From: Luteococcus sp. OSA5
GTDB taxonomy: Bacteria > Actinomycetota > Actinomycetes > Propionibacteriales > Propionibacteriaceae
Reading direction: 5' to 3'
Assembly (NCBI RefSeq): GCF_048595755.1
Contig: NZ_CP184360.1
Span: 1,463,090-1,487,089, forward strand
Length of the DNA: 24,000 nt
Numbering within the stretch: the stretch's first letter is position 1; every line of letters starts with the position of its first letter. This document shows positions 6,759 to 24,000 of this stretch, piece after piece. The translations under genes were made by a program, and so were the position numbers. Below the pieces are notes generated by a model. That model saw nothing but the letters and a program-made list of their open reading frames with translations. It was not told the DNA's origin and did not search any database.

Positions 6759-7223
6759 TCAGCGGCGCGACGTCCTCCTGCCCAGCATCAACCCGGCGAC
6801 GAGGCTGGCACCCCAGATCACGAACAGCGGATCCCACAGCCAGGCGTGGCCGATCATCGCCATCCGGTCGTAGCCCGGGCCGCCCACCAGGCCGGCCAGC
6901 ACCAGGTTGCAGACGACGGTGTTCACCCCGCCCCACGCGATCAGGATGACGGCGCCCAACCAACAGACCGTCCGTGCCCACCGGCGGTTGAGCAGGCCGA
7001 ATGTGGTCAGGGCGACGGGGAAGAGTGCGAAGCCCGCCTTGACCAGGGCGACGGGGATCAGGAGCCAGCGTCGGCCCTCGAAGGCCTGGACCAGTTCGGT
7101 GCCGATGGTGCTGAGTAGCCAGTTCCCGCCGAGTGCCCAGTAGAGGCTCAATCCGGCGTGGACAAGCCCCGCGAGGGCGGCGATGATCAGGAGCGGGTGG
7201 ATGCGGCGGGGTGTCGTCTGCAC
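6759..7223 (-). CDS. DUF3995-like integral membrane protein
   Basis: 154 aa, GTG start at 7223, about 4 TM helices. N-terminal HAGLSLYWALGGNW matches the H.YWA.GG.W motif I associate with DUF3995. Confidence 0.65.
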   Translation of the reverse strand: MQTTPRRIHPLLIIAALAGLVHAGLSLYWALGGNWLLSTIGTELVQAFEGRRWLLIPVALVKAGFALFPVALTTFGLLNRRWARTVCWLGAVILIAWGGVNTVVCNLVLAGLVGGPGYDRMAMIGHAWLWDPLFVIWGASLVAGLMLGRRTSRR

Positions 7224-7297
7224 CGCTCCAGTCTTCTTGTGGGGCTGGCCGAGCGCATCAGGGGAACCACCCGGATGGCCCCGATGAAGGAGCAGAA

Positions 7298-7828
7298 GTG
7301 GTCAACAGCCAGACCTTGAGCGAAGCGGACCGGCGGCTGCTGGCCTTGTGGGCGGCCGATTGCGCTTCGCGCGTCGTGTCGCTCGTCGACGGTGACGCGG
7401 AGTGCCTCGACACCATCACCGACGCCGTGGAGCGCGCCCGAGCCTTCGGAAATGGTGAGAGCACCGCCGCGGCCGAGATCAAGCTGCGGATGCGGGCGGT
7501 GAAGGCAGCGGGCAAGGCCGATTCCCCGGCCGGTGCAGCTGCCGCTCGGTCCGTCGCCCAAGCGGCAGCGGTGGCGCACATGGGCGCCCATGCGTTGGGA
7601 GCCGCCGCTTACGCCGCGAAAGCGGTGTCGCTGAGCCGCGGTGTGGATGCCGTTGATGACGAGATAGCCTGGCAGATCTCCCACCTGAGCTCCGACCAGC
7701 GTCGGGCGCTGGCGCAACTGCCCGAAGTTGGCTGTGACGAGCCGGGGCCGCTGGGGTCGGGCCTGCTGAGCCGCGGCTTCCTCGGCGAAGCGGTGCGATG
7801 CCTCCAGGGGGCAGTCGCGGGGGAGTGA
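7298..7828 (+). CDS. Imm5-like putative immunity protein (family often mis-annotated as 'exonuclease SbcC')
   Basis: Start chosen at GTG 7298, preceded by GAAGGAG (7286-7292), which avoids overlap with the divergent gene. All-alpha, Ala-rich. LLALWAADCASRVVSL ... AVERARAFGNGE ... AAARSVAQAAAVAHMGAHALGAAAYAAKAV ... EIAWQ matches the recalled pattern of the Imm5-like family. Confidence 0.65.
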   Translation: MVNSQTLSEADRRLLALWAADCASRVVSLVDGDAECLDTITDAVERARAFGNGESTAAAEIKLRMRAVKAAGKADSPAGAAAARSVAQAAAVAHMGAHALGAAAYAAKAVSLSRGVDAVDDEIAWQISHLSSDQRRALAQLPEVGCDEPGPLGSGLLSRGFLGEAVRCLQGAVAGE

Positions 7829-7987: not shown

Positions 7988-9781
7988 GTGCCGAGCTGGG
8001 TGGCCATCTTCCGAGAAAGAACCTCATTGTCGCTCACCACACATTTCGCATCGCTTCTACCGAATCGTGACGATGTCACAGAGGTGCGCCAGCACTGGAA
8101 GGGCGACATTCTGGCCGGCATCACCACCGGCATCGTGGCTCTGCCCCTCGCCCTGGCCTTCGGTGTTGCTTCCGGCATCGGCGCAACCGCAGGTCTGATC
8201 ACCGCGATCGTCGCCGGAATTGCCGCCGCAATCTTCGGCGGCTCCCGATTCCAGGTTTCCGGCCCCACCGGGGCGATGGTCGTGATCCTCGCGCCTCTCG
8301 TTGCCCAGCACGGCCTCGCCGTCATCCCGCTGTTGTCGATTCTCGCGGGCCTCATCCTGGTCGCCGGTGCTCTTGCCGGAGTTGGTCGGGCAGTCTCGCT
8401 CATTCCTTGGCCCGTCATCGAGGGCTTCACTGCCGGCATCGGTTTGATCCTGATCCTGCAGCAGATTCCGAACGCTCTCGGTGTGGAAGCTGAGGTGGGA
8501 GCCAACACCCTTGCCGCCGGCATTGACGCGATCGTCCAGGCTGACTACCCGAGTGCCCTCATCCCACTGGGAGTCGCCCTTGGCACCGCACTTCTCATCG
8601 TCGTCTTCGACAAGATTTCACCCCAGTTCCCCGGCACTCTTGCCGCCATCGTCATCGCCACTCTCGGCGTCATGGCCGCGAAATTCCAGATTGCAAACAT
8701 CGGCGAGATCCCGGACTCGCTCCCCGCTCCGACTCTGCCCGCCTTCAGCACCGACCTGCTCATGGCACTCGTGCCTGGCGCCATTTCCATCGCACTTCTC
8801 GCCGGTATCGAGTCCCTCCTCTCGGCGCGAGTGGCAGCCGGCATGGTCCGCGGAGGTACCTACCACCCCGACCGTGAACTCTTCGGTCAAGGCATCGCCA
8901 ACGCCGCTTCCGGAATGTTCGGCGGCATGCCCGCGACGGGCGCCATCGTGCGCACGGCCGTCAACATCCGTGCCGGCGGACGCTCCCGCCTTTCTCCGAT
9001 CGTGCACGCGCTGCTGCTCATGCTCATCGTCTACGCGGCATCCGACGTCGTTTCGGTCATCCCGATGGCCGCCCTCGCCGGGGTCCTCTTCGTCACCGCT
9101 GGCCGCATGATTCCCTGGGAGGCGATGAGTCAGATTCTGCGCTCGACGCGCGCGGATGCCCTGATCTTCATCCTGGCTGCGATCGTCACGGTGGTCTTCG
9201 ACCTCATCTGGGCGATTCTGCTGGGTGTGGTCATCGCAGTCATCGTCATGATGCGCCACTTCGCCCGCCTGTCCGGCATTCATCGCGAAGGTCCCGTGGA
9301 GGATCCCCGCATTCGCATTCTGCGGATCGACGGCGCGATGTTCTTCGGGGTTGCCGACCGCATCAGCCACGAAATCACCCGCCTCGATGCCGTTCGTGTT
9401 GTGATCCTGCGCCTGTCACGCGTGGGCATCATGGATGCCACGGGTGCGAAGGTTCTCTCCGAAATCGTCACCGCCCTGCGGCAGGCCGACAACCACGTCC
9501 TGCTCGTCGGCCTGCGCGAGCAGCACGAGGCACTGACCAACGTGCTCGGACTTCCGCAGGCGATGGACGCGCCTGATCGATTCTTCGACTCGATGGACGA
9601 GGCTCTGGTTGCGGCCGAGCAGATCGTTGCCGAAGACGAGCGTGAGCTCGAGGAAGAGCTCCGGCGACAGGCGCTCGCCGAGGCCTCTGGGGCGCCTGAT
9701 GCCACCGTCTCGACTTCCGCGTCTGGAAAGTTCGGAAGTCAGCTTGCTGCACGGGTCAACAGGATGCGTGGGCGCGGCTAG
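7988..9781 (+). CDS. SulP-family anion transporter with C-terminal STAS domain and an acidic coiled tail
   Basis: GDILAGITTGIVALPLALAFGVASG ... FGGSRFQVSGPTGAMVV are typical SulP motifs. The STAS-like part is ILRIDGAMFFGVADRI ... VILRLSRVGIMDATGAKVL. GTG 7988 has GGAGAGGG 9 nt upstream. Alternative starts at 8000 or 8027. GC3 is only about 74%, versus about 96% in the neighbouring cycA. Confidence 0.85.
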   Translation: MPSWVAIFRERTSLSLTTHFASLLPNRDDVTEVRQHWKGDILAGITTGIVALPLALAFGVASGIGATAGLITAIVAGIAAAIFGGSRFQVSGPTGAMVVILAPLVAQHGLAVIPLLSILAGLILVAGALAGVGRAVSLIPWPVIEGFTAGIGLILILQQIPNALGVEAEVGANTLAAGIDAIVQADYPSALIPLGVALGTALLIVVFDKISPQFPGTLAAIVIATLGVMAAKFQIANIGEIPDSLPAPTLPAFSTDLLMALVPGAISIALLAGIESLLSARVAAGMVRGGTYHPDRELFGQGIANAASGMFGGMPATGAIVRTAVNIRAGGRSRLSPIVHALLLMLIVYAASDVVSVIPMAALAGVLFVTAGRMIPWEAMSQILRSTRADALIFILAAIVTVVFDLIWAILLGVVIAVIVMMRHFARLSGIHREGPVEDPRIRILRIDGAMFFGVADRISHEITRLDAVRVVILRLSRVGIMDATGAKVLSEIVTALRQADNHVLLVGLREQHEALTNVLGLPQAMDAPDRFFDSMDEALVAAEQIVAEDERELEEELRRQALAEASGAPDATVSTSASGKFGSQLAARVNRMRGRG

Positions 9782-9810
9782 TTGACTCTTGTCACGACGC
9801 TGTGGACGCG

Positions 9811-9848
9811 AAACGCCCTCGGGAGCCAGAAGCTCGCCGAGGGCGTTT
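9811..9848. terminator. Bidirectional intrinsic-terminator-like hairpin between SulP and tRNA-Ser
   Basis: AAACGCCCTCGG-GAGC / GCTC-g-CCGAGGGCGTTT, a stem of about 16 bp with one bulge and a CAGAA loop. It is followed by TTTTC on the plus strand (after the SulP stop at 9781) and TTTCG on the minus strand (after the tRNA 3' end at 9864). Confidence 0.6.
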
Positions 9849-9863
9849 TCCCCTTGTCAGGGA

Positions 9864-9951
9864 TGGCGGAGGATACGGGATTTGAACCCGTGAGGGCGTG
9901 AACCCAACCCGCTTTCCAAGCGAGCGCCATAGGCCTCTAGGCGAATCCTCC
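9864..9951 (-). tRNA. tRNA-Ser (anticodon GGA), long variable arm, CCA encoded
   Basis: The reverse complement GGAGGATTCGCCTAGAGGCCTATGGCGCTCGCTTGGAAAGCGGGTTGGGTTCACGCCCTCACGGGTTCAAATCCCGTATCCTCCGCCA folds by hand as follows. Acceptor GGAGGAT/ATCCTCC. Anticodon stem CTCGC/GCGGG with loop TTGGAAA. T-arm ACGGG-TTCAAAT-CCCGT. Long extra arm, discriminator G, then CCA. Confidence 0.92.
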
Positions 9952-10006
9952 GTGGGAGAGCGTACACGTTGGGTTCACCTCGCCGCCAATCGGCGGTCTG
10001 TTGTGG

Positions 10007-11437
10007 CTAGCTGTCGTGGATGATCTCGGCGTACAGGGTGCCTGGGGTGACCTCGTCGGCGTCGGGCGCGACGTGCTTGCGTCCGAAGAACCACGCCACG
10101 CCCAGGACCATGAACCACACCGGGGTGACCAGCAGGGCCTGCAGGGTGTCCTTCTCCTGGGTGAGCACCGCCAGGATGAACACGAAGAAGACCAGCACCA
10201 CCTGCGGCATGAAGCGGGCCCCTGGCATCTTGAAGACGCTGTTGGCGTGCGCCTCGGGGTAGCGCTTCAGGTAGGTCATGTAGCTGAGCAGGATCAAGGT
10301 CCACACGAAGATGAACAGCACCGCGGAGATCGTCGTGACGATGGTGAAGGCGCCCATGATCGAGTCGTTGAGCATCAGCAGGATCGCGGTGAGGATCAGC
10401 GTCACCGAGACCACCAACCCTGCCACCGGAACCCCGTTGCCGGAGAGCTTGCCGAAGCGCTTGGGTGACATGCCGCGCTGGGCCAGCCCGTAGAGCATCC
10501 GTGAGGTGGAGTAGATGCCCGAATTGCAGGAGCTGGACGCCGAGGTCAGCACGACGAAGTTCATCACCGATGCGGCCGCGGCCAGACCCACCAGGCCGAA
10601 CAGGTTCACGAATGGTGACATGGTGGGGTCCACCTCGTCCCAGGGCGTGACGCACATGATCGCGGCCAGGGCGAGCACGTAGAAGACGACCACTCGCACC
10701 GGGATCGAGTTGATCGCCTTGGGCAAGGTCTTGACCGGGTCCTTGGTCTCCGCAGAGGTGGTGCCCACCAGCTCGATGCCGACGAAGGCGAAGACCGCAA
10801 TCTGGAAGGCCGCCAGGAAGCCCTTGAGGCCGGTGGGGAAGAAGCCGCCGTGGCTCCACAGGTTCGACAGTTGCGCCACCTGCCCACCGGGCGAGGTGAA
10901 GCGAGTGACGAGCATGAAGCCGGCGGCCAGGATCAGCACCACGATCGCGATCACCTTGATCAGGGCGAACCAGAACTCCAGCTCACCGAAGAGCCGCACG
11001 GTGAGCAGGTTGAGCCCCAGCAGCGCCAACATGACCGCCGCGGCCAGCGCCACCGACAGCGGCATGTCGTGCACCCAGTAGTCCCAGTAGCCGCTGATCG
11101 CCACCACGTCGGCCATGCCGGTCACCACCCAGCACATCCAGTAGGTCCAGCCGGAGAAGAAGCCGGCCCAGGGCCCGAGCATGTCGGTGCTGAAGTCCTG
11201 GAAGCTCTTGTAGTCCAGGTTGTGCAGCAGCAATTCGCCCATCGCGCGCATGACGAAGAAGAGCATCACGCCGATGATGGTGTACACCAGCAGCAGCGAC
11301 GGCCCCGCGACGTGGACCGTCTTGCCGGAGCCCATGAACAGGCCCGTGCCGATGGCACCGCCGATGACGATCAGTTGGATGTGTCGATTGCTCAGGCTGC
11401 GCTGCAGGCCCTCGCTGTGCTCGGTGGTCTGGGTCAT
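10007..11437 (-). CDS. cycA: D-serine/D-alanine/glycine:H+ symporter (APC amino-acid permease)
   Basis: 476 aa, ATG at 11437 with GAAGGAAG SD. LSNRHIQLIVIGGAIGTGLFMGSGKTVHVAGPSLLLVYTIIGVMLFFVMRAMGELLLHNLDYKSFQDFSTDMLGPWAGFFSGWTYWMCWVVTGMADVVAI is near-colinear with the recalled E. coli CycA (LTNRHIQLIAIGGAIGTGLFMGSGKTISLAGPSIIFVYMIIGFMLFFVMRAMGELLLSNLEYKSF...). Similarity continues through FQIAVFAFVGIELVGTTSAETKDP. Confidence 0.9.
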   Translation of the reverse strand: MTQTTEHSEGLQRSLSNRHIQLIVIGGAIGTGLFMGSGKTVHVAGPSLLLVYTIIGVMLFFVMRAMGELLLHNLDYKSFQDFSTDMLGPWAGFFSGWTYWMCWVVTGMADVVAISGYWDYWVHDMPLSVALAAAVMLALLGLNLLTVRLFGELEFWFALIKVIAIVVLILAAGFMLVTRFTSPGGQVAQLSNLWSHGGFFPTGLKGFLAAFQIAVFAFVGIELVGTTSAETKDPVKTLPKAINSIPVRVVVFYVLALAAIMCVTPWDEVDPTMSPFVNLFGLVGLAAAASVMNFVVLTSASSSCNSGIYSTSRMLYGLAQRGMSPKRFGKLSGNGVPVAGLVVSVTLILTAILLMLNDSIMGAFTIVTTISAVLFIFVWTLILLSYMTYLKRYPEAHANSVFKMPGARFMPQVVLVFFVFILAVLTQEKDTLQALLVTPVWFMVLGVAWFFGRKHVAPDADEVTPGTLYAEIIHDS

Positions 11438-11619: not shown

Positions 11620-11715
11620 GCAAGGTCCCCGCGCGGCGGTACCTCGCCCAACTCCCCCAGGGTCGAAAGGCAGCAAGGGTAAGTGAGCTCTTCCGGGTGC
11701 GCGGGGGCCCCTTTG
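11620..11715 (+). ncRNA. ffs: Signal recognition particle RNA (small bacterial 4.5S type)
   Basis: Contains the conserved domain IV core AACTCCCCCAGGGTC-GAAA-GGCAGCAAGGGTAAG (GNRA tetraloop and symmetric-loop nucleotides). A long hairpin closes with CTCGC/GTGAG, CGG/CCG, CCCCGCGC/GCGCGGGG and AAGG/CCTT. A -10-like TAAGCT (11609-11614) lies 6-7 nt before the predicted 5' end. A T-rich stretch follows the 3' end. Ends are approximate, within about 5 nt. Confidence 0.85.
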
Positions 11716-11779
11716 TGTCTCCAAGCGCGTGTGTGTCTCGAGGCGCGTGCCGTCGCGCGCCTGCCCTCGGAGCCAGGGG

Positions 11780-15979: not shown

Positions 15980-18790
15980 GTGGCGTCAACTAGGCTCCAG
16001 TGCGTGGATGACGACTTCGAGGACGAGCTGCAGGACGATGCCTCCGAACCCTTCGAGCAGGACGGCCCGGGGCTGTTCGACGAGGGGCCCACGGCCGCGC
16101 CCGACGGTCCGCTGGTGACCCAGGAGCCGGACGATGGGCTCGAGGACGACCCCGAGGACGAGGTGCTGATGGGTGGCGCCGGTGATCCGACCGTGCTGGA
16201 TCCGGAGGAAGCCGACGATGCTGCCACCAGCATCGATGCCGCCCCGGTCGATCTGCAGGCTGCTGAGTCCGACGCGGATGCGCCCAGCACCCCAGGCGCG
16301 CCCACCACCGCTCCCGTGCCCAGCGCAGCCGAGGGCCCGGGCGAACTGGCCGCCCCGGCGGCTCGACACCAGCCGCGGGCCGTCGACGAGGCCCCTGCCG
16401 CGCCCCTGGCCCTGTACCGGCGCTACCGGCCCGAGACCTTCGCCGAGGTCATCGGGCAGGAGCACGTCACCGACCCGTTGCAGCGCGCCCTGCAGAACAA
16501 CAAGGTCAACCACGCCTACCTGTTCAGCGGCCCGCGTGGCTGCGGCAAGACCACGAGCGCGCGCATCCTTGCTCGTTGCCTGAACTGTGAGAAGGGGCCG
16601 ACCCCGGAGCCGTGTGGTGAGTGCCAGAGCTGCAAGGACCTGGCCCGCGGCGGCAATGGCTCCATCGACGTGATCGAGATCGACGCGGCCAGCCATGGCG
16701 GCGTCGACGATGCGCGTGACCTGCGTGAGCGAGCCTTCTTCGCCCCGGTGCACAGCCGCTACAAGATCTACATCATCGACGAGGCCCACATGGTGACCGC
16801 CCAGGGCTTCAACGCGATGCTGAAGTTGGTGGAGGAACCACCACCCCATGTGAAGTTCATCTTTGCCACCACCGAGCCCGAGAAGGTCATCGGAACGATC
16901 CGATCCCGCACCCACCATTACCCCTTCCGTCTGGTGCCGCCGAAGGTCCTGCAGGGCTACCTGGCGCAGCTGTGCCAGGCCGAGGGTGTCTCGGTCGACC
17001 AGTCGGTGCTGCCCCTGGTGGTTCGTGCCGGTGCCGGATCGGTGCGTGACTCGCTGAGCGTGCTCGACCAGTTGCTCGGCGGTGCCGCGGAGCAGGGGGT
17101 CAGCTACGAGCAGGCCTCGGCATTGCTGGGCTACACCCCTGATGCGCTGCTCGACGAGATCATGGACGCCTTTGCCGCGGGAGATTCCGCGGGGGTCTTC
17201 GCCACCATCGACAAGGTGATCGAGGTGGGCCAGGATCCCCGTCGCTTTGCCGAGGACCTGTTGCGTCGGTTGCGAGACCTGGTGATCGTCGCCGCCGTGC
17301 CGGATGCCGTGGCCAGCGGCCTGATCGACGTCTCGGGCGACCAGGCCGAGCGGTTGGAGACCCAGGCCAATGGTCTGGGGCGGGGCGAGCTGACCCGTGC
17401 CGCCGAGGTGATTGCCACCGGCCTGACCGACATGCGGGGCACCACCGCACCCCGGCTGCACCTGGAACTGATGTGTTCCCGCGTCCTGCTGCCCGGTGCC
17501 GACGTCGACGGTCGCGGCATCCACGCCCGGCTGGACCGGTTGGAGCGACGGATGGGAATGGTGGGTGGCGCTCCCGACACGGCGCCAGCCGACCAGGGGC
17601 GTTGGGAGATGCCCGAGCCGACGCCGCAAGGGCCAGTCGGCCCCCAGGCGGCCCGGGCCGCAGCCCAGGCCAGCCGTGCGCCGCAGCCCGCAGGGCCCAG
17701 CGAGCCGGCGCCCGGGCAGCGGCCAGCGCCGGCCCCGACCGGCGCCCCGGCCCCAGGCAATGCCCAGGCGCCCGACGTGCCGCCGGCTGCCGGGCAGCCT
17801 GCCCAGCAGAGGCCCGCGCCGGGTCCGGAGACGGCCGGCCAGCCCATGACCCCACAGACTCCCCAAAGCCATCAGCCGCAGCAGGCAGCGGGTCAACGTC
17901 CCGCTGCGGGGGCAGGGCAGCGCCCGGCAGGTCCGCCGCCAGGCCAGGGCCAGCGTCCTGCGGGGCCCCCGCCCGGCCAAGGCCAGCGCCCTGCGACAGC
18001 CGGGCCCCAGGCCCCCCAGCCGCAGCAGCCGTCACCCGCCCAGGGACCAGCTGCACGCGGGACCCTGTCGGTGGCCGACGTGCGTCGGTTGTGGCCCCAG
18101 GTGCTGGACGAGGTCAAGAACCGCAAGCGCTTCGCCTGGATCCTGCTGAGCCAAAACGCCCAGGTGGTCGATGTCAGCGACGGCGTCCTGGTGCTGGGCT
18201 TCACCAGCACGGGTGCGCGCGACCGTTTCGCCTCGGGCGGCACCCAGGACGTGCTGCGCGACTGCATGGTTCAGGTGATGGGCGCCGACCTGCGGATCGA
18301 ACCCATCCTGGAGGCCGGTGGGGGACGTGCGCGCACCGAGCCCAGCAACCGATCACAGCCTCGACCCGCGGCGCCGGACCATGCTCCCGGGGGTGCGCCG
18401 GCCGGACAGCCCCCGGCAGCGCAGGCTCCGTCGGGGCCGGCCCCGGCCGGTCCGGCGCCATCGGGGCCAGGCGATCGGCAGGCGGCGGCTCCTGCCGTCG
18501 CACCCCGCGCCCCCTACGACGACATGCCGCCACCCGACCCGGAGGATGCGCCTCCGCCAGACCCCCGTGACGAGCACGAGCCGCCCGCCACTTCACGCTG
18601 GACCCAGCAGGCGCGCCAGAGCATCCGCCCCACCGCGGCGGGCCCCAGCGCGCCAGAGGCCGAGGTGGACGAGTCACAGCTGGTCAGCGAGGACGACGAG
18701 TCCCTGGATGAGAGCGGCGAGTCCGCTGCCGAGCTGATCACCCGGGCGCTGGGAGGCGTCGTGATCGCAGAAGGTGAGTCGCAACTGTGA
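15980..18790 (+). CDS. dnaX: DNA polymerase III subunit gamma/tau, with an acidic N-terminal extension of about 142 aa and a long Pro/Gln/Ala-rich linker
   Basis: Conserved core starts at LALYRRYRPETFAEVIGQEH (about nt 16406). It contains GPRGCGKTTSARILARCLNC, a zinc module CGECQSCKD, YIIDEAHM and FIFATTEPEKV. An in-frame TGA at 15968-15970 limits the start to GTG 15980 or 16004. GC3 of codons 16011-16168 is about 93%, so the extension looks translated. Confidence 0.9.
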   Translation: MASTRLQCVDDDFEDELQDDASEPFEQDGPGLFDEGPTAAPDGPLVTQEPDDGLEDDPEDEVLMGGAGDPTVLDPEEADDAATSIDAAPVDLQAAESDADAPSTPGAPTTAPVPSAAEGPGELAAPAARHQPRAVDEAPAAPLALYRRYRPETFAEVIGQEHVTDPLQRALQNNKVNHAYLFSGPRGCGKTTSARILARCLNCEKGPTPEPCGECQSCKDLARGGNGSIDVIEIDAASHGGVDDARDLRERAFFAPVHSRYKIYIIDEAHMVTAQGFNAMLKLVEEPPPHVKFIFATTEPEKVIGTIRSRTHHYPFRLVPPKVLQGYLAQLCQAEGVSVDQSVLPLVVRAGAGSVRDSLSVLDQLLGGAAEQGVSYEQASALLGYTPDALLDEIMDAFAAGDSAGVFATIDKVIEVGQDPRRFAEDLLRRLRDLVIVAAVPDAVASGLIDVSGDQAERLETQANGLGRGELTRAAEVIATGLTDMRGTTAPRLHLELMCSRVLLPGADVDGRGIHARLDRLERRMGMVGGAPDTAPADQGRWEMPEPTPQGPVGPQAARAAAQASRAPQPAGPSEPAPGQRPAPAPTGAPAPGNAQAPDVPPAAGQPAQQRPAPGPETAGQPMTPQTPQSHQPQQAAGQRPAAGAGQRPAGPPPGQGQRPAGPPPGQGQRPATAGPQAPQPQQPSPAQGPAARGTLSVADVRRLWPQVLDEVKNRKRFAWILLSQNAQVVDVSDGVLVLGFTSTGARDRFASGGTQDVLRDCMVQVMGADLRIEPILEAGGGRARTEPSNRSQPRPAAPDHAPGGAPAGQPPAAQAPSGPAPAGPAPSGPGDRQAAAPAVAPRAPYDDMPPPDPEDAPPPDPRDEHEPPATSRWTQQARQSIRPTAAGPSAPEAEVDESQLVSEDDESLDESGESAAELITRALGGVVIAEGESQL
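17888..18001 (+). repeat. In-frame tandem repeats inside the dnaX linker (33-nt unit encoding GQRPAGPPPGQ)
   Basis: Units at 17915-17947 and 17948-17980 encode GQRPAGPPPGQ twice, with synonymous differences. Flanking partial copies encode (A)GQRPAAGA and GQRPATA. They are embedded in a P/Q/A-rich low-complexity region (about 17570-18060). Confidence 0.85.
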
Positions 18791-20001
18791 ACCCCAACGT
18801 GACGATCGTCTTGGCACCCGACTCCTTCAAGGAGAGCCTCACCGCCAAGCAGGTGTGCACCGCCCTGGAGGCCGGCCTGCGGCAGAGCCTGCCCGAGGCG
18901 AACATCCTCCACGTCCCGATGGCCGACGGCGGTGAGGGCACCGTGCAGGCGCTGGTGGATGCCACCGGTGGCAGCCTGCTCACCGCACCGGTCGCAGGGC
19001 CGATGGGAGGGCCGATCGAGGCAACCTTCGGGATCCTCGGCGACGGGGAGACCGCGGTGATCGAGATGGCCGAGGCGAGCGGTTTGGCCTTGGTTCCCGA
19101 GGGTCGGCGCGACCCGCGTCGGGCCACCACCCGCGGTACCGGCGAACTGGTGCTGGCCGCACTCGACGCCGGGGTGCGCAACATCGTGCTGGGCATCGGC
19201 GGCAGTGCCACCAATGACGGCGGTGCGGGCCTGGCCCAGGCGCTGGGTGCCCGCCTGCTCGACGAATCCGGCCACGAGCTGCGCCCCGGCGGAGCGGAGC
19301 TGGCCAAGCTGGCCACCATCGACGTCTCGGGCCTCGATCCGCGGCTGGCCGAGACCACCTTCCAGGTGGCCTGCGACGTGAGCAACCCACTGTGCGGCCC
19401 ACAAGGCGCCTCGGAGATCTTCGGCCCGCAGAAGGGCGCCGACCACCGCTGTGTGGCCGAACTCGACGCCGCCCTGGCGCACTATGCCCGCATCATCGAG
19501 CGTGATCTGGGCCGCGACGTGGCCACCCTGCCCGGCGCGGGCGCGGCGGGAGGCCTGGGCGCGGCCATGGTCGCCTTCTGCGACGCCACCCTGCGGCGCG
19601 GAGTCGACATCGTGCTGGAACACAGCGGTCTGGAGCAACACCTGCAGCATGCAGACCTGGTGATCACCGGCGAGGGGCGACTCGACGGGCAGACCCGCTT
19701 CGGCAAGACGCCCAAGGGCGTGGCCGATCTCGCCGGGGAGTACGAGGTGCCCGTCATTGCCCTTGCTGGAAGCCTTGGGGATGGGGCCGAGACCCTGCTC
19801 GATGCGGGCTTCAGCGCTGTCCTGCCCGTCGTTGCCGGGGTCGGCACCCTGCAGCAGGCGCTGGCCGAGGCGGCCGGGAACCTCGAGCGCACCGCACGCA
19901 ACCTGGGCGCCCTGCTGAGGATGGGGGCGGCGCTGCCCGTACCCCCGTGGCCCGTGGCAGACGCCGGTGGTGAGCAGTCCGGTGCCCAGCAGGCCACGTA
20001 G
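18787..20001 (+). CDS. glxK: Glycerate kinase
   Basis: Collinear with the recalled E. coli GlxK: IVLAPDSFKESLTA, VPMADGGEGTV, TRGTGELVLAAL, IGGSATNDGGAGLAQALGA, ACDVSNPLCGPQGASEIFGPQKGA, PGAGAAGGLGAAM, LVITGEGRLDGQT. The GTG at 18787 overlaps the dnaX stop (GTGA). Confidence 0.9.
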   Translation: MNPNVTIVLAPDSFKESLTAKQVCTALEAGLRQSLPEANILHVPMADGGEGTVQALVDATGGSLLTAPVAGPMGGPIEATFGILGDGETAVIEMAEASGLALVPEGRRDPRRATTRGTGELVLAALDAGVRNIVLGIGGSATNDGGAGLAQALGARLLDESGHELRPGGAELAKLATIDVSGLDPRLAETTFQVACDVSNPLCGPQGASEIFGPQKGADHRCVAELDAALAHYARIIERDLGRDVATLPGAGAAGGLGAAMVAFCDATLRRGVDIVLEHSGLEQHLQHADLVITGEGRLDGQTRFGKTPKGVADLAGEYEVPVIALAGSLGDGAETLLDAGFSAVLPVVAGVGTLQQALAEAAGNLERTARNLGALLRMGAALPVPPWPVADAGGEQSGAQQAT

Positions 20002-21980: not shown

Positions 21981-24000
21981 TCAGCTCTCCTCGTTCTTGT
22001 CGTCGAGCACCGGCTGCACCTTCTCCTCCCAGAAGGTGCGGGCTGCGGCGCGCAGCGAGTCGATGTCGGAGTCGTTGGTCACCACGTAGGTGGAGACCTC
22101 CTCGCGCTCGTCGTCGGTCACCCGGGCATCCAGCCGCTCCCAGGCCGCCTCGCGGCTGATGTCCTTCTCGCTCATCAGGCGTTCGGCCCGGTGCTCGACG
22201 GGGCTCGCCACGGCCACCACCTCGTCGAAGCGGCTGGCCTGGTTGGTCTCTGCCAGCAGCGGTGCATCCACCACGACGACGGCGTCCGGGCCGGCCTGGC
22301 GCGCCCGGGCCTCGATCTCGCTGATGATGCGCGGATGCATGATCGCCTCCAGCCGCAACCGGGCGTCGCGGGAGGAGAAGACCAGGCGGCCCAGGGCCTG
22401 CCGGTCCACGACGCCCTCGGCAGTGACGATGTCCTCACCGAAGACCGAGCGGATCTCGTCCTGGATCTCGGTGTCGTCGTCGAGCAGGCTGCGGTTGATC
22501 TCGTCGGCATCGATGACCACGCCACCCATCAGGCGCAGCTCGTCGGCGACGATCGAGGTGCCCGAGGCGGCTCCGCCGGTGATGGCGATCGACAGCAGGG
22601 GCAGCCCGGCCTGGGCCCGGCGCACCGCATAGGTGTTGGGCACGTGGGTCTCGAACTCGGGTTCGGTGCCCGGCTCGAACTCGGGACGGATCACGTACTC
22701 GGTGACCGGCACCCCGTCCTCCTGCACGCGACGCACGTACTCCTCGGCGGGCAGCACCTGCTTCCACTGGCGGGTACGTACCGGGCGTGCCGCGCCGGCA
22801 TCCTCGCGCAGTGCCTGGATGACCATCAGCATCTGCAGGAAGTTGATCACCATCATCGGGAAGCCGATCACGATGATGACCTCCTGCAGGGCGCTGAGGC
22901 CGTTCTCCCCGGCGGTGAGGATGATCGACGCGCACACCGCGCCCACCGACAGGGCCCAGAAGACACCCTGCCGCCGCGGGGCCGGGTCTTCGTGTCCGTT
23001 GGCCATGGCGTCCATCACCAGGGCGCCGGAGTCGATGGAGGTGATGAAGAACAACACGATCGCCACCAGGGCCACCATGGCGGTGATCTGGTACAGCGGC
23101 AGCGCGCCCAGGAACTGGAACAGGGCAGCCTGGACATTCCCCTCGGTGACGATGGTCTCGGTCAGGTCGCCTCCGCTGGCCGCATTCGGTGCGCTTGAGC
23201 GGTCCTGGGTGATGCCGTTGTAGCCGTAGATCGCCATCCAGACGATCACGAACAGCGACGGTGCGCCCAGCGTGCCCAGCACGAACTCCCGGATGGTGCG
23301 GCCGCGGGAGATCTTGGCGACGAACATGCCGACGAAGGGTGCCCAGGTGACCGTCCAGGCCCAGTAGAAGACGGTCCAGTCGCCGGACCACTGGCCGTCG
23401 TTGTGCAGGTCGTTGAAGAAGGACAGCACGGGCAGGTTGGCCGCATAACCGCCGAAGGACTCGACGATGGCGCGCAGGGTGGGCACGGTGGCGCCGGTGA
23501 TCAGGATGAAGACCAGCAGCGCGGTGACCACCACGATGTTGGCGTAGGACAGCCGCTTGACGCCCTTGTCCATGCCGGCCAGCACCGAGGCCAGTGCGAT
23601 GCCGGTGATGATCGCCAGGATCATCGCCTGCACCCAGGGAGCGATCTCGAGCCCGAAGACGTAGTTGGCGCCGGAGTTGATCTGCAGCGCGCCAAGGCCG
23701 GTGGAGACCGACAGACCGAAGACGGTGGCGACGATGGCGATCACGTCGATGATCTTGCCGATGGGGCCGTGGATGCCGTCACCCAGCAGTGGGTGGAAGG
23801 CCGACGAGACGCGCGGTGGCAGCTTGCGCTTGTACGTGAAGTAGCCGAAGCCCAGGCCGGGAACCACCAGGATCGCCCACATGTGCAGGGCGAAGTGGAA
23901 GTTGGCGATGGCCAAGGCCTGGTCGGCAGCTCGGTCGCTGAAGGGAACCGTATCGCCCAGCGGAGGATTGGCGTAGTGGTTCATGGGTTCCGCCACGCCC
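21981..24000 (-). CDS. BCCT-family (betaine/carnitine/choline) transporter fused to a C-terminal dephospho-CoA-kinase-like domain; N-terminus lies beyond the window
   Basis: The frame is open to the window edge. BCCT signature WTVFYWAWTVTWAPFVGMFVAKISRGRTIREFV. After the last TM and a linker (EYVIRPEFEPGTEPEFETH), residues of about 466-660 (nt 22601-22017) align with the CoaE pattern: IAITGGAASGTS.VA..L...G..VIDADEI ... FG..I...G.VDR..L...VF ... HP.I ... VVDAPLLAE. No stop codon separates the two parts. Confidence 0.85.
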   Translation of the reverse strand, partial: GVAEPMNHYANPPLGDTVPFSDRAADQALAIANFHFALHMWAILVVPGLGFGYFTYKRKLPPRVSSAFHPLLGDGIHGPIGKIIDVIAIVATVFGLSVSTGLGALQINSGANYVFGLEIAPWVQAMILAIITGIALASVLAGMDKGVKRLSYANIVVVTALLVFILITGATVPTLRAIVESFGGYAANLPVLSFFNDLHNDGQWSGDWTVFYWAWTVTWAPFVGMFVAKISRGRTIREFVLGTLGAPSLFVIVWMAIYGYNGITQDRSSAPNAASGGDLTETIVTEGNVQAALFQFLGALPLYQITAMVALVAIVLFFITSIDSGALVMDAMANGHEDPAPRRQGVFWALSVGAVCASIILTAGENGLSALQEVIIVIGFPMMVINFLQMLMVIQALREDAGAARPVRTRQWKQVLPAEEYVRRVQEDGVPVTEYVIRPEFEPGTEPEFETHVPNTYAVRRAQAGLPLLSIAITGGAASGTSIVADELRLMGGVVIDADEINRSLLDDDTEIQDEIRSVFGEDIVTAEGVVDRQALGRLVFSSRDARLRLEAIMHPRIISEIEARARQAGPDAVVVVDAPLLAETNQASRFDEVVAVASPVEHRAERLMSEKDISREAAWERLDARVTDDEREEVSTYVVTNDSDIDSLRAAARTFWEEKVQPVLDDKNEES

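Follow-up and report, generated by a model that had tools for sequence, protein, structure and literature searches.

A BCCT transporter of Luteococcus with a CoaE-derived cytoplasmic tail that may act as a non-catalytic regulatory domain

Transporters of the betaine/choline/carnitine family (BCCT, TC 2.A.15) have cytoplasmic C-termini. In the homotrimer BetP of Corynebacterium glutamicum, transport is regulated by a C-terminal domain that changes its contacts (reviewed in PMC10710835). Among BCCTs, only this short osmosensory tail is understood, and control by an appended ligand-binding domain is known in few secondary-transporter families. CoaE, the dephospho-coenzyme A (dephospho-CoA) kinase, which catalyses the final step in making coenzyme A, also associates into trimers: the Mycobacterium tuberculosis enzyme interconverts between trimer and monomer, and the balance is shifted both by dephospho-CoA and by cytidine triphosphate (CTP), which binds the dephospho-CoA site (PMC3123319). 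Here we describe a gene that joins both families in a single protein, found at the end of a 24,000-nucleotide stretch of Luteococcus sp. OSA5 DNA (contig NZ_CP184360.1, positions 1,463,090 to 1,487,089; hereafter the window). What is new is the BCCT-CoaE fusion architecture; the broader types, transporters with a regulatory domain added on the cytoplasmic side and pseudoenzymes, are already known. An earlier, sequence-only reading of the window was not aware of any described fusion of this kind, and our search for literature that links BCCTs with CoaE or dephospho-CoA kinase likewise found nothing relevant.

The fusion open reading frame (ORF) runs on the minus strand from the window edge to a TGA stop at 21981–21983 (partial ORF, 21981–24000; 671–672 codons visible plus the stop; G+C at third codon positions, 0.93). 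Since the frame stays open up to position 24000, the 5′ end of the gene lies beyond the window. Judged from the full-length orthologue of Luteococcus H101 (788 residues; 8450–10816 of locus L003), about 116 N-terminal residues are outside the window and the whole protein has about 788. The visible part divides into three: (i) a BCCT transmembrane domain (22800–23996), in which residues 1–399 match PF02028 with an E-value of 1.3e-127 and 426.7 bits against a cut-off of 27, over profile positions 98–485 of 485; (ii) a conserved cytoplasmic linker of 69 residues (22593–22799); and (iii) a CoaE-fold domain, residues 469–671 (21984–22592), in which PF01121 matches residues 469–645 with an E-value of 2.1e-43 and 148.5 bits against a cut-off of 27. 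Two families thus match one ORF, as the sequence-only reading had claimed, and the linker, which it had put at about 65 residues, contains no stop. We considered whether a separate CoaE-like protein might be made from an internal start and rejected it: the sole candidate is an in-frame GTG at about 22622–22624, which is not preceded by a recognisable Shine-Dalgarno sequence. No promoter or terminator motifs were found around the 3′ end of the gene.

Profile, structure prediction and fold comparison agree on the nature of the tail, whose CoaE fold had first been proposed from sequence pattern. The dephospho-CoA kinase model TIGR00152 scores 122.9–126.8 bits, above its cut-off of 65.55; PRK03333, the actinobacterial equivalog, reaches 165–170 bits and stays under its cut-off of 215. 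The solved sequences nearest to the domain are all CoaE, the best being that of M. paratuberculosis (PDB 6N39, E-value 1.3e-23). The last 270 residues were modelled with AlphaFold2, and over the CoaE-like domain the predicted local distance difference test (pLDDT) score is 95–98. When compared with the PDB by Foldseek, all of the 30 top matches were dephospho-CoA kinases, among them the Burkholderia enzyme 4I1U (TM-score 0.85, root mean square deviation 2.5 Å).

The fold is that of CoaE, yet the phosphate-binding loop (P-loop) is degenerate. Where the Walker A pattern GxxxxGK[ST] demands the lysine that is Lys14 in M. tuberculosis CoaE, the window domain reads GGAASGTS (22554–22577), with Thr480 encoded by ACC (22557–22559), exactly at the position and with the codon first reported. 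The AQ motif is changed to AR, and the equivalent of Arg145 is Lys611. Other landmarks are kept, including the two motifs already singled out from the letters alone: DAD within VIDAD (22503–22511), whose second Asp, Asp498, corresponds to Asp32 of M. tuberculosis; PLL within DAPLLAE (22254–22262), in the hydrophobic dephospho-CoA cleft, where Leu580 corresponds to Leu114; the HP motif; Arg606 of the lid (22179–22181), the equivalent of Arg140; and the equivalents of Ser15 and Asn175, the latter being Asn641. The fusion protein is by these comparisons a CoaE homologue, yet by its Walker A motif it would not count among the CoaE enzymes proper.

Does the fusion exist outside this assembly? A closely related allele stands on a Logan contig of another sample (L001), likewise in one unbroken frame and with GGAASGTS. 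It differs from the window by a synonymous divergence of 0.06–0.20 and nine non-synonymous changes. We then scanned one genome per species, which returned 62 loci. In 32 of them, each from a different species genome, BCCT core, linker and CoaE-like domain stand in a single ORF of about 790–850 codons. The hosts are Citricoccus (9 genomes), Kocuria with one Kocuria-like metagenome-assembled genome (MAG; 7), Luteimonas, Alterluteimonas and gammaproteobacterial MAGs (7), Luteococcus (3, with proteins 74–79% identical to that of the window), Micrococcus (3), Arcanobacterium ihumii (1), Dermacoccus (1) and Brachybacterium (1). The architecture is thus not unique to this genome. The 32 genomes contain 34 fused ORFs, because two Micrococcus MAGs hold two each: complete fusion genes in tandem (L012, 6128–13420; L032, 163–5079), followed by canonical coaE. 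The whole fusion was therefore duplicated again in Micrococcus. In the Kocuria atrinae C3-8 draft (L034, 8489–10821), the BCCT ORF ends at 573 codons and the CoaE-like domain is in another frame, either because the draft assembly contains a frameshift or because the gene is a pseudogene in nature; in the JCM strain of K. atrinae (L023) the fusion is unbroken.

A library of 1.84 billion cluster representatives gave a sparser picture: the best 150 matches included one full-length fusion (P0097, 792 residues, GGIGSGRS) and two fragments. This search underestimates the size of the family, because canonical CoaE reach higher scores than the degenerate fused domains. A Kocuria varians protein of the fusion family with a degenerate domain (P0247) is labelled 'dephospho-CoA kinase' in NCBI, a probable over-annotation.

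Where did the tail come from? In a neighbour-joining tree of 85 CoaE domains (40 fused and 45 canonical; 200 bootstrap replicates), all 40 fused domains form one clade (bootstrap 0.975), which is nested among canonical coaE of Micrococcaceae. The gene order points the same way. The arrangement rpsA-coaE-uvrB is the classical actinobacterial coaE locus, and in 20 Micrococcales genomes the fusion is found there, with rpsA and polA upstream and a stand-alone coaE of about 200 codons directly downstream, often overlapping by a few bases, then uvrB. This adjacent coaE is fully canonical (GLTGGIxSGKST, DAD, HP, PLLVE, AQA). Arrangements with an unfused BCCT gene also exist: the order is polA-rpsA-...-coaE-BCCT-uvrB in Rothia, and an unfused BCCT gene followed by coaE in Kocuria palustris and two other Micrococcaceae. 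The BCCT halves agree with the CoaE-domain tree, and a derived variant of transmembrane helix 8 (TM8), FYYAWTVTWSPF, is common to Luteimonas and Citricoccus. Taken together, these comparisons make it likely that coaE was duplicated once beside a BCCT gene and fused to it in the rpsA-coaE-uvrB region of a Micrococcaceae genome, and that the whole fusion later moved horizontally to Luteimonas (Gammaproteobacteria), Brachybacterium, Arcanobacterium and Luteococcus.

The fused domains have since drifted from the enzyme. All 45 canonical CoaE in the alignment keep GLTGGIxxGKS, DxD, HP, PLLxE, R..R and AQ; such complete retention indicates that the Walker lysine is strongly selected in real CoaE. 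The same position in the 40 fused domains is Lys in 21 (Citricoccus, Dermacoccus and most Kocuria), Arg in 12 (Luteimonas, Micrococcus and K. carniphila), Thr in 6 (Luteococcus and Arcanobacterium) and Ala in 1 (Brachybacterium), and when these residues are mapped on the tree, the lysine must have been lost independently at least four times. Other motifs have moved as well, DAD to SAD, EFD, DND or DSV, PLL to RDL or RDP, and AQ to AR, DD or DE; HP varies too. Of 42 positions with at least 90% conservation among canonical CoaE, 12 are changed in the window domain. Lysine is lost in 12/12 fusion genes that lie away from coaE versus 4/22 of those in place, counts that are phylogenetically non-independent. 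Over 209 species pairs, the divergence of the fused domain exceeds that of the canonical coaE beside it by a median factor of 1.6 (ratio above 1 in 89% of pairs).

Drift has not meant loss of constraint. Ratios of non-synonymous to synonymous substitution rates (dN/dS, by the Nei-Gojobori method) within the Luteococcus clade are 0.02–0.36 for the CoaE-like part, 0.11–0.18 for the BCCT part and 0.03–0.25 for the linker; the CoaE-like part gives 0.10–0.46 in Kocuria, Luteimonas, Citricoccus and Micrococcus. Even in the K. rhizophila group, which is the most degenerate, the dN/dS of the fused domain equals that of the adjacent true coaE. Gly474, Gly479, Arg606 and Asn641 are invariant in all 40 fused domains, residue 481 is Ser or Thr in 37, and Lys or Arg holds the Walker position in 33. 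As judged from these alignments, the CoaE-like domain is kept by purifying selection, with a loosening of the constraints specific to the enzyme, a pattern that fits the binding of a phosphate-bearing ligand without selection for phosphoryl transfer. The domain is an enzyme homologue that lacks a residue invariant in active members, and it is under purifying selection alongside an active paralogue, the canonical coaE adjacent in 20 genomes; both are marks of a pseudoenzyme.

With the subfamily model TIGR00842, the transporter half scores 394 bits against a cut-off of 407.55, computed on the protein without its first ~116 residues. The core signature of the BCCT family is there, but the TM4 and TM8 signatures of solved BCCTs are altered: the window protein has HFALHMWAIL within the TM4 motif HFALHMWAILVV (23862–23897) and FYWAWTVTW within the TM8 motif FYWAWTVTWAPF (23334–23369), against HWGLHAWGIY and WAWWIAW. 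The motifs HF(A/G)xHMWxxL and FY(W/Y)AWTVTW occur in all 66 linker-bearing BCCTs of loci L001–L063, and the same positions read HWxLHxWxIY and FYWAWWIAW in TmaT, BetP and choline transporters. Three of the divergent positions are, in BetP numbering, W189, Y197 and W374 of the aromatic box that holds trimethylammonium groups, and the window clade has F, L and T there. The fusion protein thus belongs to a separate clade of BCCTs in which the substrate box is atypical. Because the three box positions are replaced, the substrate of this clade may not be classical betaine or choline.

Between TM12 and the CoaE-like domain lies the linker (...RPVRTRQWKQVLPAEEYVRRVQED...YVIRPEFEPGTEPEFETH...), the best-conserved stretch of the tail. 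It is Arg-rich and acidic, follows the pattern RTRQWKQVLPxEEYxRR ... RPE(F/Y)ExGTEPE (RTRQWKQVLPxEEYxRR at 22749–22778; PGTEPEFE at 22650–22673), is uninterrupted by stops and matches no Pfam family. AlphaFold2 models it with low confidence (pLDDT 50–70) and a short helix only. The extension RPVRTRQWKQVLPAEEYVRRVQED is found clade-wide and has no sequence similarity to the BetP tail. Unfused members of this BCCT clade, in Rothia (L036, 10849–12690), Kocuria palustris and Pseudoclavibacter helvolus (P0054), have the linker too, which makes it an older functional element of the clade and not a scar of the fusion.

What does the tail do? We consider it somewhat probable, and the best explanation of the data, that the fusion is an inherited BCCT transporter whose CoaE-derived tail is a non-catalytic, ligand-sensing regulatory domain. 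Comparative sequence evidence makes a regulatory role the most likely one, and we put it forward for a putative nucleotide- or CoA-type ligand. On this reading, the CoaE-like domain would no longer be mainly a dephospho-CoA kinase but would sense an adenine or cytidine nucleotide, or CoA or dephospho-CoA. The ligand state, possibly through a monomer-trimer change like that of M. tuberculosis CoaE, would reach the trimeric BCCT core by way of the conserved linker and set its transport activity, in parallel to the C-terminal domain of BetP. Coupling of the three tail domains in the trimer is proposed by analogy, and so is an allosteric link between transport and CoA or nucleotide status, which the sequence-only reading had already suggested and which these parallels would accommodate. 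Because DAD, HP, PLL and Arg606 are kept while the adenosine triphosphate (ATP) side is altered (Lys to Thr, AQ to AR), the window pattern favours a CoA- or CTP-type ligand over ATP. A more detailed and more tentative version, which we hold possible but doubtful as a whole, is that a pseudokinase tail of single Micrococcaceae origin, since spread to Gammaproteobacteria, senses the CoA/dephospho-CoA pool, CTP or adenylate and gates the BCCT through ligand-dependent contacts among three tails.

Several observations weigh against a non-catalytic, ligand-sensing tail, and most of them would suit a bifunctional protein, in which the tail is an active, membrane-tethered dephospho-CoA kinase, even the working CoaE of Luteococcus, with Arg606 compensating for the Lys-to-Thr change. 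In M. tuberculosis CoaE, the K14A mutant kept 81% of kcat, with a Km for ATP raised 1.5-fold, R140A was inactive and D32A severely impaired, and the authors proposed that Arg140 compensates for K14A (Walia et al. 2011, PMC3019153); loss of the lysine need not, then, abolish activity. With the equivalents of Asp32, Ser15, Leu114, Arg140 and Asn175 kept, the window domain may have residual kinase activity, and its TIGR00152 score exceeds the equivalog cut-off. The fused domains of Citricoccus keep all canonical motifs and could be active kinases. No separate coaE is found within 10 kb of the fusion in the three Luteococcus loci of 20 kb each. Finally, the ligand side appears ambiguous family-wide, as ATP-side and CoA-side motifs are each relaxed somewhere. 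We nevertheless think an active kinase unlikely. K14A had no detectable activity in a 2026 study (PMC13629385). The lysine is universal in the canonical enzymes, the window domain departs from 11 further near-invariant positions, PRK03333 falls short of its cut-off, the fused paralogue evolves 1.6 times faster, and every genome with the ancestral downstream locus has a separate canonical coaE. Since CoA synthesis is essential and both genes are visible in 20 genomes, a separate canonical coaE is expected elsewhere in the genome of the window. Of the earlier pseudokinase proposal, the substance is strengthened by the repeated loss of the lysine, the canonical coaE downstream and purifying selection; its term 'dead' is unproven, as the disagreement of the two K14A studies weakens any such call made from a P-loop sequence.

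A tail without catalysis might also do without a ligand. The domain might be a purely structural module, a cytoplasmic cap that trimerises or scaffolds the BCCT trimer: BCCTs are trimeric, CoaE is able to trimerise and several CoaE crystal entries contain three chains, the fold is conserved and modelled with very high confidence, and both substrate pockets are relaxed somewhere in the family. We give this little more than a small chance, comparable to that of the active kinase, because the P-loop glycines, Arg606, Asn641, the hydroxyl residue at 481 and the charge at the Walker position, all conserved as described above, point to retained phosphate binding, which fits better than a mere scaffold. 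Nor is the tail likely to be the functionless remnant of an accidental fusion in neutral decay. Its degenerate catalytic motifs, its faster evolution than the canonical paralogue and the out-of-frame domain of the K. atrinae draft would agree with decay, but dN/dS is well under 1 in all clades tested (0.02–0.46) and equal to that of adjacent coaE in the K. rhizophila group, and the domain is intact in 34 ORFs, was kept after transfer to four unrelated lineages and folds confidently in AlphaFold2; we regard neutral decay as improbable and largely refuted. An assembly, sequencing or gene-calling artefact, with two genes split near 22600–22800, deserves practically no credence. The comparative data refute it: the frame is the same in an independent related strain (L001) and in 32 species genomes, and strong purifying selection has preserved the amino-acid sequence of the linker. 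Because L001 and three Luteococcus genomes show the same open frame, a hidden frameshift is excluded, and so is a sequencing error, against which the two-nucleotide difference between ACC and AAG had already been cited.

If a regulatory, ligand-sensing tail is the right explanation, the protein would be the first BCCT to be gated by a metabolite, and its tail the first regulatory module of a transporter to be drawn from the enzymes of CoA biosynthesis. The fusion is in any case a compact and evolutionarily well-resolved example of a housekeeping kinase that became the tail of a transporter. Natural variants with K, R, T or A at the Walker position, together with an active paralogue next door, make the question of binding versus catalysis directly testable. 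The label 'dephospho-CoA kinase' on fusions can mislead metabolic reconstructions, in which coaE could be counted twice, as well as lists of essential genes and drug targets.

In the window, the fusion gene has housekeeping genes as neighbours, namely those for dnaX, glycerate kinase, ybaB, recR and a Cof-type HAD phosphatase. The glycerate kinase gene (18787–20001; Pfam E-value 6e-154) lies between dnaX (15980–18790), whose stop its start overlaps by 4 nt, and ybaB-recR; the same insertion is seen in Luteococcus H101 (L003). The Luteococcus fusion genes share this dnaX-glycerate kinase-ybaB-recR-HAD synteny with the window. We rejected the neighbours as functional partners, as they have housekeeping functions and do not accompany the fusion in hosts other than Luteococcus. 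Rfam and tRNA scans of the window found only a small signal recognition particle RNA (11620–11716, plus strand; 59.1 bits) and a tRNA-Ser(GGA) (9864–9951, minus strand), both far from the fusion gene. An Imm5-like putative immunity protein is encoded at 7211–7828 on the plus strand (Pfam E-value 2e-29), and no obvious toxin partner for it was found among the neighbouring ORFs, which include a DUF3995 protein and a SulP-STAS transporter.

How does the fusion compare with the systems that it resembles? With canonical CoaE (PF01121/TIGR00152, EC 2.7.1.24) the window domain shares the three-part P-loop kinase fold, profile scores above the cut-offs and, phylogenetically, descent from Micrococcaceae coaE. 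Unlike the enzyme, it is C-terminal on a membrane transporter and outside the rpsA-coaE-uvrB context, has Thr for the Walker lysine among its 12 changed near-invariant positions, and belongs to a fast-evolving clade that coexists with canonical coaE wherever this can be checked. BetP is a BCCT (PDB match, E-value 6e-68) with a cytoplasmic extension after TM12 that opens with an Arg-rich segment, and regulation through the tail, established for BetP, is what we propose for the fusion. The BetP tail, however, is a helix of about 55 residues without an enzyme-derived domain, whereas that of the fusion consists of the 69-residue extension and a CoaE-fold domain of 200 residues; at W189, Y197 and W374, in BetP numbering, the fusion has F, L and T. 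The nearest solved BCCT cores are the TmaT-type trimethylamine transporter (PDB 8ZW8, E-value 2e-88) and BetT-type choline transporters (3e-71), which differ in having WAWWIAW in TM8 and HWxLHxWxIY in TM4 and have neither the RTRQWK linker nor a CoaE-like domain.

The regulatory principle has closer parallels outside the BCCT family. In MetNI (C2 domain), ModC, MgtE and OpuA (CBS domains) and YiiP (C-terminal domain), an appended soluble ligand-binding domain gates a transporter (PMC10710835). None of these is a BCCT and none uses a pseudoenzyme derived from a P-loop kinase, and sensing, demonstrated there, is only inferred for the fusion. CoaE is also one of several domains in other proteins, namely M. 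tuberculosis CoaE-GrpB/UPF0157, the eukaryotic CoA synthase PPAT-DPCK, CoaE-bPH_2 and GNAT-CoaE. In those fusions the canonical P-loop is kept and the domain is an enzyme, whereas here it is attached C-terminally to a carrier and its motifs are degenerate.

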